A program made the position numbers and the translations under genes. From contig CAWDVR010000001.1 in assembly GCA_963805975.1 (NCBI GenBank), positions 1,056,001 to 1,120,000 of the forward strand: a stretch of DNA of 64,000 nucleotides, read 5' to 3'. Origin of the DNA: an uncultured Acidobacteriota bacterium. Its GTDB lineage: Bacteria; Acidobacteriota; Thermoanaerobaculia; Multivoradales; SZUA-115. The stretch's first letter is position 1; each line of letters starts with the position of its first letter. This document shows positions 32,335 to 38,300 of the stretch, piece by piece. The notes beneath the pieces are model-generated. The model saw only the letters and a program-made list of their open reading frames with translations. It was not told where the DNA came from and searched no databases.

Positions 32335-32363
32335 GAGCTCCATCGCAAGCCGATGGAAGGCTC
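32335..32363. terminator. Hairpin between convergent genes (end of the giant NRPS-PKS)
   Basis: GAGC-TCCATCG-CAAGC-CGATGGA-ag-GCTC. Confidence 0.45.
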
Positions 32364-35300
32364 TACGGCGTGCCGCCCGATTCTTCGAGCATGGCGGCGA
32401 TCTCGTGTGCCAGAACCTCGACATGTGGTGCGCGGAGCAAGGTCATGTGGTTGCCGGGGACCTCGCGAACCTCGACTCCTTCCGCCAGCGTTTCCCAGCC
32501 GAGCTCCCAACTGGAACCTTGGGCCTTGCGCTCGGCACTGCGCAACAGCGTCACGCGGCCGGGATAGGGTCGGGGCCGGTACTTGGCCATGGCTTTCCCG
32601 TTGGCCTGAGTGGCCCGGAGCATGGCATCGAGCTGCGGCGCCTCGAGGAGAGCCGCCCTCGACTCCTGGTCGACCAGCCCGGCGATGGCGGCCCCCTGCA
32701 CCGCGGAGCGGACCCGCTTGACGGATAGCAGGCGCCTGACTAGCCAGCCGAGCTTGCCGTGTTCGGCGGCGGGCGGCGTCCCGGCGTTGACGAGATAGAG
32801 GTAGTCGCGGATGTAGGGACCGAAGTTGCCCAGGACGACGCGGAAGAATTCCGCCGTCTCGCGCAGGACGGCGAAGCCGCGGGCCGGCCGGGGCGCCGGG
32901 GCGTCGATCAAGGCCACCGCGGCGACTACCTCGCCTTGCTCGCGGAGCTGGCAGGCCATTTCGTAGGCCACCTGGGTGCCGAAGGACCAGCCGCCCAGGT
33001 GGTAGGGACCGCGCGGCTGGACGGTGCGGAGGGCGGCCACGAAGTAGGCGGCCTGGTCCTCGATGCGCGGCAGCGAGTGACCGTCTCCCGAGAGGAAGGG
33101 CGGCTGCAGGCCATAGAAGGGTTGATCCTCGCCCAGGTGCTGGGCGAGACCGTAGTAGGGGAAGACCGTCCCCATCACCGGCGCGACGCAGAAGAAGGGC
33201 CAGCGGCTGCCCGCAGGCTGGATCGGCACCAGGGGAGACCACTGAGGGACACCCGCGTGCGCCTGGCGGCCGAGGGCCTCCGCCATCTGGCGCACCGTCG
33301 GAGCGGTGAACAGGCTGGAGAGCGGGACCTCGGTGCCGAGCCTCTCGGTGAGTCGCGAGGTCAGGCGAACACCGAGGAGCGAGTGGCCGCCGAGGGCGAA
33401 AAAGTCGTCTCGGACGCCGATGCGCTGGATTCCCAGGACCTCCTGCCAGATGGCGGCGATCCGAGCCTCGAGCTCGTTCGCGGGCGGCTCATACTGTACG
33501 TCGAGCGCGGGACGATCGTGCTCCGCGGGAATCGCTTGGACGAGGGCCTGCTGCTCCTCGTGCCGTCCTGCGCCGTTCCCGCCGGCAGCCTCGGGGCTCC
33601 TGGGCACAGCGATGTCCCGATGCGCGGCTATGCCGGAATGTCGTAGGGGCTCCACCCAATAGCGCTTGCGCTCGAAAGGATAGGTGGGGAGCGTCACTCT
33701 GCGCCGCTGTTCACCGCTGAAGAAGGCGGGCCAGTCCACTCGCACGTCGGCGAGCCAGAGGCGGCCCAGAGTGGTGAGCAGGTGAGCTCGCGCCGGCTCG
33801 TCCGCAGCCGGCGGCAGGGAGGTGAGGACCGTCTGCCGCCGGGGCACGGCGGGATGCCGCTGCGCCAGGGTCGCGAGACTGCGGCCGGGACCGACCTCCA
33901 GTAGAACGCGCTCGGGGACGCGCGCGAGCTCCTCGAGACTCTGACTGAAACGGACCGTGCGGCAGAGATGATGCGCCCAGTAATCGGGGCTGGTGGCTTC
34001 CTCGGCGGTGATCCAGGTGCCGGTCGCGTTCGAGATCCACGGCAGCCGGGGCGGGCGGCGCTCGACCCGACTCACCGCCTCGCGCAAGGGCTGCATCACC
34101 GGCGCCATCAGCGGCGAATGGGCAGCGAGGCTCAGGTGAAGACGACGATTGCCGATGCCCTCGGCCGTGAGCCGGGCCGCCAGCTCGTCGATGCGGGCGT
34201 GCTCTCCGGCGAGCACGCACCAGTGAGGGTCGTTGACCGTGGCGAGGGAGAGGCCTGTGGCGAGGAGGCGTCCGACCTCCTCCTCCGGCAGGTCCACCGC
34301 CAGCATCCCGCCTTCCGGCTGGTCCTGCATCAGGCGCGAGCGCAGGACGACCAGGCCCAGCGTGTCCTCGAGGGAGAAGACTCCGGCGAGGCAGGCGGCG
34401 GTGTACTCCCCGAGGCTGTAGCCGACCATGGCCGCGGGCTCGATTCCCCAGGCCATCCAGGTGCGGGCGAGGGCGTGCTCCGCGGCGACCAGGGCCGGCT
34501 GGGCGAGCCGTGCCTCGGCGAGCCCGCCGTCGGTGGGCGGCGCGGAGGACCGGGGGTAGAGCAGGGTCCGCAAGTCGAGACCGAGATGGGGCGCGAGGAT
34601 CTCGGCGGCGCGATCGATCTCGCGGCGGAAGACCGGCTCCTCGGCGTAGAGCTCGCGCCCCATCCCGACGTGCTCCACACCCTGGCCGGGGAACAGGAAG
34701 CAGACCGGCGGGCGCGACGTTTGTGGGCGATGCGTCCACAGGCCTTCCGCGCCGCGCCACAGCGTCCGCGCTACCGCGGCGGCATCCCTGCCAACGACGA
34801 TCCGGCGGTGCTCGTGGGCCGGCCGGCCGACCGCGAGGGAAAAGGCGACGTCGGCGAGCGGCGGCGCCGGCGACTGCCGCAGGCGGTCGGCGAGGCGCTC
34901 GGTCGCGGTGTCGAGCGCGGTGGGCGTGCGCGCCGAGATCAGGATGAGCTGCTCGCCCCGCGCCGGGCCGGAGACCGGCCTCGGTGGTGCCTGCTCGAGG
35001 ACCACGTGGGCGTTGGTGCCGCCGAGCCCGAAGGAGCTGACCCCAGCGCGTCGCGGCAGCGGCCCGGGCGGCCAGGGACCAAGCTCGCGCTGGACGTGGA
35101 ACGGCCCGCCGTCGAGGTCGAGGGCGGGGTTGGGATACGTAAAGTGCAGGCTGGGCGGGATCTCGCCCTGCTCGATCGCCAGGGTGGTCTTGATCAGTCC
35201 GGCGATGCCGGCCGCGGCGTCGAGGTGGCCGATGTTGGTCTTGACCGAGCCGACAGCGCAGGCCGGCGGCGGCTCGCCGTCGCGCGTGAAGGCCTGGCGG

Positions 35301-38300
35301 AGGGCAGCGAGCTCGATGGGGTCGCCGAGCGGCGTCCCGGTGCCGTGGGCCTCGACGTAGCCCACGGTCGCCGGGACCACCCCGGCGAACGCCTGGGCGG
35401 CGCGGATCACTTCGGCCTGGCCGTCGACCGCCGGAGCGGTGAAGCCGGCCTTCAGCCCTCCGTCGTTATTCATCGCCGAACCCTTGATCACCGCATGGAT
35501 GTGGTCGCCGTCCGCGAGCGCATCGGCAAGGCGTCGCAGCACCACGACGCCGACGCCGTCGCCGCTGATGCAGCCCGAGCTCTGGACGTCGAAGGCCCGG
35601 CAGTGGCCGTCGGGCGAGAGGATGCCGCCCTTCTCGTACAGGTAGCCCTGGCGCTGCGGCACGCTCACCGAGACGCCGCCCGCCACGGCCAGGTCGCATT
35701 CGCGCTGGAGGAGGCTGCGGCAGGCGAGATGGACGGCGACGAGAGAGGTCGAGCAGGCCGTCTGCACGGCGAGGCTCGGACCTTTGAGGCCCAGCTTGTA
35801 GGAGACCCGCGGAGCGAGGAAATCCTTGTCGATGCCGGTCAGCGCCTGCAGGCCGTTGACCGTCCCCAGCACCGCCGGGTTGGCCAGCAGGTTGGAGAGG
35901 AAATAGGTGCTGAGGCTCGAGCCGGCGAAGACGCCGACGGAGATCTTGCCGCCGCCGCCCAAGTGCCCGGCGCGCTCGAGACCCTCGACCACGCACTCGA
36001 GAAACAGCCGGTGCTGCGGATCCATCAGCTCGGCCTCGCGTGGGGTGTAACCGAAGTAGGCGGCGTCGAAGAGGTCCGCCCCGGCGAGCGGGGCCCGCGC
36101 CGGGACGTAGTCGGGATGGTCGAGGAGACGGCCGTCGACGCCCGCTGCGGTGAGCTCTTCGCGGGAGAAGAAGGTCACGGCCTCGACGCCGTCGCGCAGA
36201 TTGCGCCAGAAGGTCTCGACGTCGGCCGCGCCGGGGAACCGGCCGGCCAGGCCGACGATCGCGATCTCCGTTCCCCGGCTCGGCAGCACCGCCTGTGGCG
36301 CCGGGACGGCTGCCGGCCGCGGGGCGGGGACGGTCGCCGGAGCTGGCGAGGCCTTCGCGGTGTAGAAAAGCGCCAGGGCGTGGATCGTCGGGTACTGGAA
36401 CATCTCGACCAGCGACGGCTGCCAGCCGAACTCCTGGCGCAGCTTCTCGCGCACCCGAACTATTGCCAGCGAGTGTCCGCCGACCTCGAAGAAGAGATCG
36501 TGGACCCCGACCTGCTCGCGTTGCAGCACCTCACACCAGATCGCGGCGATCGTCCGCTCGACCTCGGTGCGTGGCAGCGCTCCGCTCGTCTCGCGGCCGG
36601 CTGGCGTGGGCACCTGCGCCAAGCGCGCGAGGGCCTGGCGGTCGAGCTTGCCGTTCGGCGTCCGCGGCAGGCGCTCGATCAGCCGCAGCTCACCGGGTAC
36701 CAGGTAGGCCGGGAGCCGCCGGGTGAGCTCGTTGCGCAGGATGGCGGCGAGTTCGGCGCCGGCCCGAGCCGTCGGTGCCACCCAGGCGACGAGCTGGCGC
36801 TCGCTCTCCCCGGCCGCCTCGCGGACCACGACCGCCGTCTCCAGCACGGCGGCGTGCGAGGCGAGGACCGTCTCGATCTCGCCCGGCTCGATGCGGAAGC
36901 CGCGCACCTTCACCTGCTGGTCGAAGCGGCCGAGGTACTCGATCTCGCCGTCGGGCAGGCGGCGGGCGCGATCCCCGGTGCGGTAGAGGCGTTCGCCCGG
37001 GCGCAGGGCAAGACCGTCCGGCACGAAGCGCTCGGCGGTGCGTCCCGGCTGGCCGAAGTAGCCGCGGGCGAGCCCCGGCCCGCCGAGGTAGACCTCTCCT
37101 GGCTGTCCGGCCGGCACGAGGTCGCCGCGGCCATCGAGCAGCAGGGCTCGCCCGCTGGCGACCGACCGGCCGATCGGTACCGGCCGGCCTGCTCCCGGCG
37201 CCACCCGCGCTGCGGTCGAGTACGTGGTGTCCTCCGACGGGCCGTAGAGGTTCCAGACCTCCTCCACCGTCCCGAGCGCGTGGATCTCTTCGACCAGGGA
37301 GCGAGCGAGGGCTTCGCCGCCCAGGCAGACCACGCGGCAGGAAGGCGGCACGGCGCCCATGCGGAGGAGCGCGGCCATCGCCGACGGGACGGTGCTGATC
37401 AGGCCGACCCTGCCGCCGTCGCTCGCTTCCAGGGCGAGCGCGTTGGCCATCAGCACGACCGTCCCGCCGCTGGTCAGCGGGCCGAGGATCTCGAACAGCG
37501 AGACGTCGAAGCTGATCGAGGTCGAGGCCAGGGTGCCGGCGAGTCGCGGCGGGGGGAAGGCTCGGCGGGCCCACTCGAGCAGGGCCACGGCGCCGCGATG
37601 GTGGAGCGCCACGGCCTTGGGCCGGCCGGTCGAGCCCGAGGTGTAGAGCAGCGACGCCAGATGATCCGGCGCGAGCGCCGGTGGTGCGAGCTCCGGCGCT
37701 CCGGCGGCAAGAGCGAGGACGCGGTCGACGTCGAGGCGAGGTCCGTCCCAGCTCGGGACCCGCGCTGCGAGGGAGGACTGGCTGAGGAGGAGCCGCACGC
37801 CCGCGTCGGCGAGGAGCAGGGCGAGCCGCTCCGTGGGATAGGCGGGATCGAGCGGCAGGTAGGCCCCACCGGCCTCCAGGATGGCGAGCAGGCCGACGAC
37901 GAGGTCCGGGGTGCGATCGAGGCAGAGGCCGACGACGGTCTCCGGCTCGACTCCACGCCGTCGCAGCACGGCGGCGAGCCCGGCCGCGGCGGCCGCGAGG
38001 CCCTGGTAGCTCCATTGCTCGGTCGCCCCGTCAGGCGGCTGCCAGACCAGCGCGACGGCCTCGGGTGTCCGGCCCACCTGGGCGGCCCATAGCTGCGGCA
38101 GGGTGCGGTCCGCCGCTGCGGGCCCGTTCGCCGCTACGGATTCGGGCGCCTGCGCGCCCGCCCACTCGCTGGCGAGCTGGTGCCGCTCGGCCGGCGATAG
38201 CCAGGAGAGGCTGGTGAGCCGGGCGCCCGGCGCCGCCACCGCGGCGGCGAGGATGCGGCCGAACGAGCCCACCGCGCGCTGGATGGTGGTGGTGTCGAAG

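Follow-up and report, generated by a model that had tools for sequence, protein, structure and literature searches.

An unreduced terminal polyketide synthase module with a GYSLG/LAAH acyltransferase in an Acidobacteriota hybrid synthetase: motifs, extender supply and candidate products

We analysed a 64,000-nucleotide stretch of DNA from an uncultured Acidobacteriota bacterium (hereafter the window; G000:C1:1056001-1120000, G000 being the source assembly), whose minus strand carries most of a gene for a hybrid nonribosomal peptide synthetase and polyketide synthase (NRPS-PKS). The terminal PKS module of this gene contains an acyltransferase (AT) with GYSLG around its catalytic serine and LAAH as its specificity motif, a pair that is both real and rare. 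We hold, with middling confidence, that this AT takes a coenzyme A (CoA)-linked, C2-substituted malonyl extender, most plausibly methylmalonyl-CoA and perhaps malonyl-CoA too. A unit linked to an acyl carrier protein (ACP), put forward by the initial annotation as hydroxy-, amino- or methoxymalonyl, is disfavoured because genes for carrier-linked building blocks were not found in the source assembly, itself incomplete.

Genome mining has long struggled to predict extender units from the motifs of ATs. The present AT combines ZmaA-like pocket motifs with a scaffold of the CoA type, and its genome yielded no ZmaA-type supply. It therefore raises the question of what GYS/xAAH specifies: the carrier, the C2 substituent or just a wider pocket. 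The module architecture and both candidate release chemistries are already known; what is rare is the pair of AT motifs. The cluster itself represents a large, so far uncharacterised peptide pathway in an order of Acidobacteriota that has received little study. Neither the cluster nor an extender AT with GYS/LAAH is described in the literature searched, where coverage was thin for subscription papers and excluded supplements. Passages of PMC13638107 and PMC6164871 hold nothing further on the AT motif.

Domain organisation and motifs of the terminal module

Pfam searches over positions 32366-36400 returned a ketosynthase (KS) with its C-terminal domain, a KS-AT linker, the AT, a phosphopantetheine-binding domain and a thioesterase (TE), with no ketoreductase, dehydratase or methyltransferase domain, in agreement with the unreduced KS-AT-ACP-TE order first proposed (Table 1). 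The KS begins with EIAIVG at 36268. The catalytic motifs of the KS, AT (Ser, His and Arg), ACP and TE are all intact, and the three AT motifs picked out by the initial annotation, GYSLG, LAAH (34129-34118) and PGQGVEH, were each recovered in place in the minus-strand open reading frame (ORF). An unreduced KS-AT-ACP-TE following an NRPS is also the layout of release modules of the CorA and Dol15F kind. The TE aligns with solved TEs over its N-terminal part only, and its four close relatives are uncharacterised.

The AT lacks the GHSxG and HAFH of canonical malonyl-CoA ATs and keeps their Arg and Ser-His dyad. Its AlphaFold model (pLDDT 85.5) has an ordinary AT fold, for which Foldseek returned ZmaA (4qbu), narrowly first, and SpnD (5yda) as top matches at near-equal E-values. 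The motifs that the initial annotation gave for ZmaA were correct: the 4qbu alignment and the published description (PMC4207774) give GYSFG and GAAH, and the latter regards the Tyr as functionally His-like.

Rarity and conservation of the motifs

The departure of the AT from the usual sequence exceeds chance: at 97 alignment columns conserved in at least 90% of 139 GHS/HAFH ATs, it deviates 14 times, against a median of 2 and a 95th percentile of 7. The non-standard extender pocket suggested at the outset is supported. The 120 top homologues yielded 122 AT readings, 112 of them GHS/HAFH, three GYS/HAFH and none GYS/xAAH. A GTDB scan for GYS..AAH, whose fixed motif spacing fails to catch ZmaA itself, returned 12 loci, comprising five ATs in four other genomes and seven chance matches. 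A similar pattern scan of metagenome contigs gave 10 loci, one of them an AT, and in a phylum-wide search two of 400 other genomes matched, with starts that are not AT-like.

An independent contig recovered from two runs of one study (X3 and X4; runs X1 and X2 gave short pieces only) is 92% identical over 34095-34460. Tyr, Ser and Arg are kept in it, as are the codons for the L-A of LAAH; the final Ala and His of that motif sit in an end zone where differences may go unlisted. Sequencing error is accordingly rejected as the origin of the Tyr, Ser, Arg and L-A residues, which are unchanged in this contig. Of 28 listed differences, three at other depths were dropped. The 25 at the contig's own depth comprise 15 synonymous and 10 non-synonymous changes (pN/pS ~0.24 over 101 codons). 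RRLHL carries five consecutive synonymous changes, the derived Leu of LHLS being retained despite one of them, and the G-N-R of the adjoining patch reads G-H-R. Judged on this one orthologue from one study, the AT domain looks maintained.

Relationship to other acyltransferases

In an alignment of 168 ATs, the ten closest to the AT (56-61% identity) are all GHS/HAFH, and ZmaA stands at 41.7%. Four trees of 79, 34, 42 and 43 rows, chosen from these ATs and later additions, were built; ZmaF was omitted from the last three for its long branch, and the last two were built with motif columns masked. In all four the AT lay outside the ZmaA clade, xAAH appears at separate places, and the backbone is not resolved.

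ZmaA, which uses hydroxymalonyl-ACP in zwittermicin biosynthesis, shares with the AT the GYSxG and xAAH motifs, the Arg and the fold (TM 0.83). It differs in its clustered ZmaD/E/G/H/I/J cassette, no counterpart of which was found in G000, and in a hydrophobic MCM patch. Such an MxM/MxW patch has been proposed as a mark of ACP-borne extenders (PMC4207774); it is absent from the AT, where the place five residues before the motif is taken by G-N-R, followed by RLHLS. The aligned stretch of SpnD is RRLRMPAAAH, and the AT has the same basic RRL patch followed by xAAH. SpnD and AntD (splenocin and antimycin) use a broad range of alkylmalonyl-CoAs in a likewise hybrid NRPS-PKS setting, MPAAAH widening AntD towards these substrates (PMC6117356). 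SpnD differs in having GHS in place of GYS, and both pathways are supplied by a reductive carboxylase (PMC6117356), none of which exceeded the cut-off in G000. LAAHS has been described as a mark of isobutyryl-CoA loading ATs (PMC5355916), and GAAH as that of an acyl-CoA loading AT, motif swaps alone having failed to transfer specificity (PMC12843615). The presence of xAAH in AntD and SpnD and in acyl-CoA loading ATs thus points to a general wide-pocket motif and not to a particular carrier. GYS, for its part, also occurs with HAFH.

On this evidence, the AT would likely derive from a local malonyl-CoA (GHS/HAFH) type, with a pocket likely widened to load C2-substituted malonyl-CoA.

Within the Acidobacteriota, the uncharacterised GYSFG/YAAH ATs of loci L023 and L031-L033 resemble the AT in GYS, xAAH and an unreduced KS-AT-ACP module in a giant NRPS, and no cassette was seen in the flanks examined. 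They differ in that their modules are internal, their clade is separate (100/100), RRL is lost and their genomes hold an unlinked cassette dehydrogenase. Taken with L141 (G237:C11), the unreduced KS-AT-ACP modules of these giant NRPSs combine GYS with YAAH, YAGH or SAYH and form a small class.

Extender supply in the genome

G000 comprises 5.36 Mb in six contigs and is rated 96.35% complete. The AT gene lies on a 1.52-Mb contig that includes both flanks of the cluster, and no extender cassette was found in these flanks. The search for FkbH, acyl-CoA dehydrogenase and stand-alone ACP genes that the initial annotation had called for was made genome-wide in G000 and found no cassette, which, with the missing hydrophobic patch, argues against its ACP-linked unit. 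The FkbH profile TIGR01686 had no match in G000; it matched 45 of 151 genomes of the order and all four genomes with other GYS..AAH ATs, although some matches in these four are a long FkbH-like form and not the cassette enzyme. Our own 18-sequence FkbH profile reached a best E-value of 4.7 in G000, and a carrier-ACP profile 30 bits, true members scoring about 147. Cassette proteins of relatives, 54-79% identical to one another, matched G000 at housekeeping level or gave no match (FkbH E-values of at least 0.048; ACP 27-40%; dehydrogenases 28-44%, with one frame-broken gene at 57% over 111 residues). The cassette dehydrogenase scored 37% in G000, orthologues showing at least 56%. In the same genus, G416 yielded neither FkbH nor the cassette dehydrogenase, nor did G237 of the same family, which has two unreduced GYS ATs, SAYH and YAGH.

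Searches with the Zma proteins encoded on a Bacillus plasmid revealed no orthologue in G000. An aminomalonyl route was rejected on these searches (ZmaH, E-value 3.8; ZmaI, 28-31%; ZmaJ, best matches of 38-41% at NRPS positions). The stand-alone ACPs of G000 were likewise rejected as carriers: they sit with fatty-acid, type II/III and other loci, and none adjoins a cassette. A long alkylmalonyl-CoA extender is unlikely, the best match to crotonyl-CoA carboxylase/reductase (TIGR01751) scoring 66 bits against a cut-off of 378.55. The assembly does contain methylmalonyl-CoA mutase and a propionyl-CoA carboxylase/MmdA-type carboxyltransferase subunit, which scores below the MmdA cut-off. No stand-alone AT was found in it.

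An orthologous cluster was not found with a patatin query in seven genomes of the family, with an AT-ACP-TE query in five, or among 400 genomes of the class, where the best AT match was 60%.

Alternative readings of the acyltransferase

Several observations weigh against a CoA-linked extender. Motif swaps by themselves predict specificity poorly. Approximately unbiased (AU) tests reject a clade of the AT with neither ZmaA (p 0.19 and 0.32) nor the YAAH group (p 0.33), and the pairing of the AT with a GHS/RAFH AT is unstable, with support of 98/93 in one tree and 94/33 in another. Judged by its TE (52%), P0137 is the nearest whole module, and it too has GYSLG. The cassette dehydrogenase is present in all four other genomes with GYS..AAH ATs; in one of them, G402, the cassette stands directly upstream of a PKS whose IAAH AT also retains RRL, which robs the basic patch of decisive weight. 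Among 54 genomes of the order, 31 have both GYS ATs and the dehydrogenase, five GYS only, four the dehydrogenase only and 14 neither, counted by hand in a biased set picked for ATs or FkbH, with 13 genomes from one genus and non-independent kin. Finally, nothing over the cut-off for fabD was found in G000, whereas the gene is present in all four family relatives. G000 also has frame breaks at ~402 kb of C4 and ~609 kb of C3, with several genes frame-broken. The missing fabD and the broken genes show that this assembly can miss genes, and the absence of a cassette is weaker evidence than 96.35% completeness implies.

Most of these points would suit an AT that loads ACP-linked hydroxy-, amino- or methoxymalonyl, with a cassette that is unassembled and unlinked or has been lost, leaving the pathway orphaned. 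We regard this as unlikely, though the likeliest of the rival readings. ZmaA and ZmaF both carry GYS, 31 of the 36 GYS-positive genomes have the dehydrogenase, P0137 shares the TE subtype as well as GYS, and ZmaA led the Foldseek ranking. The cassette is often unlinked in the order and lies far from the GYS ATs in G361, G393, G065, G462 and G404. Opposed to it are the searches of G000, its flanks and G416 described above, and the basic, not hydrophobic, patch of the AT. Moreover, most of the co-occurring GYS ATs (read from one locus per genome in 30 genomes) are of another type, with a GLGDHY-like start, a longer N-terminal part, RARLI and mostly HAFH, and the present AT stays apart from this type in the trees. 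The AT of P0137 does not pair with it either. In the phylogeny with ZmaA that the initial annotation asked for, the AT stays outside the ZmaA clade, and the AU tests do not reject the kinship. That annotation had also named kinship with malonyl-CoA ATs together with a lack of extender genes as evidence against its proposal, and this is largely what was found, weakened by the assembly gaps, the dehydrogenase in all four other GYS..AAH genomes, the frequent lack of linkage of cassettes and the AU tests.

Rather improbable, in our judgement, is that the AT still loads plain malonyl-CoA and that its motif changes are tolerated drift; the product would then end in a methyl ketone or in an N-acyl tetramate without a substituent, as with CorA or Dol15F. 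The nearest ATs are GHS/HAFH; Gln, Arg, Ser and His are retained; GYS with HAFH is common, and the Tyr of ZmaA is regarded as acting like His (PMC4207774). Proteins with KS-AT-ACP-TE turn up repeatedly in the set of 120 top homologues, and the AT of CorA takes malonyl- as well as methylmalonyl-CoA (PMC10979478). Against drift stand the 14 altered columns, many of them in pocket motifs, the derived Leu kept in the orthologue, and the loss of the HAFH Phe, which would be expected to open the pocket (on SpnD, PMC12843615).

That the AT is decaying or inactive, with the module skipped or served in trans or the peptide freed unextended by the TE, is very improbable: its terminal branch is somewhat longer than the median (0.48-0.62 against 0.36-0.41), many conserved columns are changed and a supply for the best-known substrate of the motif was not found, but the catalytic residues of all four domains are intact, the predicted fold is normal, the orthologue suggests constraint (one observation, one study) and the assembly yielded no stand-alone AT.

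The GLGDHY-like ATs (L106-L135, L138) are widespread in the order, with up to 12 GYS matches per genome, and co-occur with just one dehydrogenase-ACP-FkbH cassette, which is often unlinked; they may share a genome-wide extender supply. Cassette variants were also seen. At G403:C25 (L136:7616-12036), L137 and L038 the cassette is preceded by an FkbM-like methyltransferase and followed by an amidinotransferase-like gene (labels by eye), with no FkbH between the two in G403, and at L057 and L139 dehydrogenase-ACP-FkbH occurs without the acyl-CoA dehydrogenase.

Peptide product and release

The whole NRPS-PKS ORF (G000:C1:1088363-1131025, minus strand) encodes 14,220 amino acids in an uninterrupted frame with its stop at 32363; a terminator-like site was not found at the gene end. 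Twelve peptide modules with 11 adenylation (A) domains precede KS-AT-ACP-TE. The A-domain codes, some positions of which were read by eye, give in order Thr, Thr, Val, none, Leu (epimerised), Val, Leu, Thr, Val, DVYVITQVVK, Val and DVFSCGLTYK. DVYVITQVVK reads as a Pro-family code, with no clear substrate, and DVFSCGLTYK as an Ala/Gly-family code; no paper with these code-to-substrate assignments was found. Module 5 contains an E-type domain. Module 4 (window 63500-64000 and upstream, residues 3270-3830) consists of a condensation (C) and a thiolation (T) domain with no A domain, and may be either skipped or loaded in trans. Modules 6 and 9, each taken with the next C domain (window ~54450-57475 and 44910-47935), are near-copies, with 937 of 1008 residues identical, and the A domain of module 10 (window ~43500-44400) has the unusual Pro-family code.

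The C domain after the third Thr-code module has as its best solved relatives the C domains of McyA and AmbE, presumably both dehydrating, and a dehydrating role has been mentioned for AmbE-type domains. It is predicted from its sequence to dehydrate Thr. Its motifs recur, by eye, in the C domains that follow the first and second Thr, so all three Thr are likely dehydrated to dehydrobutyrines. No loading module precedes the first C domain, which likely acylates the peptide at its N-terminus. Loss of the Thr hydroxyls together with an acylated N-terminus would leave few nucleophiles and make a macrocycle less likely.

For our preferred CoA-linked extender, the KS would condense it with the Ala-like C-terminus of an 11-12-residue hydrophobic peptide, yielding an unreduced 2-alkyl-3-oxo thioester. 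Two routes of release by the TE could then follow: amide-N attack, proposed for Dol15F and here giving a 3-methyl N-acyl pyrrolidine-2,4-dione, or hydrolysis and decarboxylation to an ethyl ketone, as in CorA. From these analogies the product end is likely an N-acyl tetramate or a decarboxylated ketone, between which we make no choice. The beta-keto thioester on an Ala-like terminus and these two exits had been anticipated by the initial annotation and have precedents in the same two systems; its third exit, a macrocycle, fares less well for the reason given above. CorA (coralinone; A-T-C-A-T-KS-AT-ACP-TE) has the terminal unreduced KS-AT-ACP-TE in common with the present synthetase and releases a beta-keto acid that decarboxylates to a ketone; it differs in making a dipeptide whose free amine closes to a pyrazinone (PMC10979478), where the present NRPS-PKS has 12 modules and a starter C domain. 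In Dol15F (dolastatin 15) a similar terminal PKS step precedes a TE proposed to form the N-acyl pyrrolidine-2,4-dione, a TE step still unproven; it differs in using malonyl-CoA and a partner O-methyltransferase (PMC13643306).

Thirteen flanking ORFs were scanned with profiles (six upstream, seven downstream; other flanking ORFs were read by eye), and neither an acyl-CoA dehydrogenase nor an O-methyltransferase was among them. In synthases of epoxyketones and related warheads the PKS carries a C-methyltransferase domain, and an acyl-CoA dehydrogenase is encoded in the same cluster. With no such domain in the module and no such gene among the 13 ORFs, an epoxyketone-type warhead is not indicated and the initial suggestion of a C-terminal warhead finds no enzymatic support; any electrophiles are more likely to be the dehydrobutyrines predicted above.

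Neighbouring genes

Upstream of the NRPS-PKS gene and co-directional with it lie an ArsA/Get3 ATPase, an 80-residue protein and a patatin, with 16 bases between the end of the patatin gene and the ORF. An equivalent trio, with a 76-80-residue middle protein of no family, occurs in G020:C2:362981-371808 (L099:2981-11808), the sole other match among 200 genomes of the order, and precedes a KS-AT-KR-ACP gene (KR, ketoreductase) and a luciferase-like monooxygenase. The megasynthase after the trio has no loading module in either genome. From these two cases, the trio is possibly a starter-supply or export unit. An atlas search with the 80-residue protein gave a best value of 0.82, a lead only.

Table 1. 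Features of the NRPS-PKS gene and its upstream neighbours. Positions are those of the window unless a locus or assembly coordinate is given.
Feature	Position	Strand	Basis or remark
Hybrid NRPS-PKS gene, 3' three quarters	32363..64000	-	ORF reading and domain scan
Thioesterase, Ser-Asp-His	32363..33241	-	GWSFG 32992-32978, LIDAP 32911-32897, GNHMT 32455-32441
Acyl carrier domain, GGHSL	33272..33463	-	Pfam and motif
Acyltransferase	33884..34699	-	Pfam, AlphaFold model, Foldseek
GNR-RLHLS-LAAH: carrier-recognition patch of AT (basic, CoA-type) and specificity motif including catalytic His	34118..34153	-	Alignment
VLRSRL, carboxylate-binding Arg of AT retained	34331..34348	-	Sequence/alignment
GYSLG, catalytic-serine motif of AT, Tyr replacing His	34409..34423	-	Sequence
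PGQGVEH motif of AT	34670..34690	-	Relatives mostly GQG[AS]Q[YH]
Ketosynthase, Cys-His-His intact	35141..36268	-	TACSTS 35761-35744, HGTGT 35347-35333, KTNIGH 35242-35225
Last peptide module C-A-T, code DVFSCGLTYK	36467..39514	-	Domain and code reading
Condensation domain after Thr-code module	47936..49213	-	Solved relatives McyA 358 bits, AmbE 205 bits
ArsA/Get3 ATPase, 80-residue protein and patatin	L001:5041-7651 = G000:C1:1131041-1133651		Gene order
TIGR03975 radical SAM C-methyltransferase, over cut-off	L001:8506-10440 = G000:C1:1134506-1136440	+	Divergent from cluster
Pyridoxal phosphate enzyme, best profiles VioD and GntC (far below cut-off)	L001:12381-13532 = G000:C1:1138381-1139532	+	Beside amino-acid permease

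Joining these elements, one could imagine that the GYS/LAAH pocket evolved independently towards the ZmaA solution and takes a C2-substituted, possibly hydroxylated, malonate from CoA with no carrier cassette, as one of repeated switches (LAAH, YAAH, YAGH, SAYH) in unreduced KS-AT-ACP modules of Thermoanaerobaculia-type NRPSs. The product would be a triple-dehydrobutyrine lipopeptide with a 3-substituted tetramate or alpha-substituted ketone cap, its starter handled by the trio. We offer this combined picture as speculation and consider it improbable as a whole.

The radical SAM C-methyltransferase might methylate the Val/Leu-rich product; no obvious precursor peptide for it was seen among the small ORFs. 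A 154-residue ORF (L001:7991-8455) precedes it.

Elsewhere, a second NRPS cluster on the plus strand, with several broken frames, occupies window positions 1-9725 (G000:C1:1018334-1065725) and ends with a cyclic-peptide exporter and a gene resembling nonproteinogenic amino-acid hydroxylases. The intervals 25848-26899 and 30476-32320 hold two neighbouring small proteins that look secreted, one of them resembling SnoaL/DUF4440 in Pfam, and, immediately after the synthetase, a protein bearing tandem NBR1-type Ig domains.

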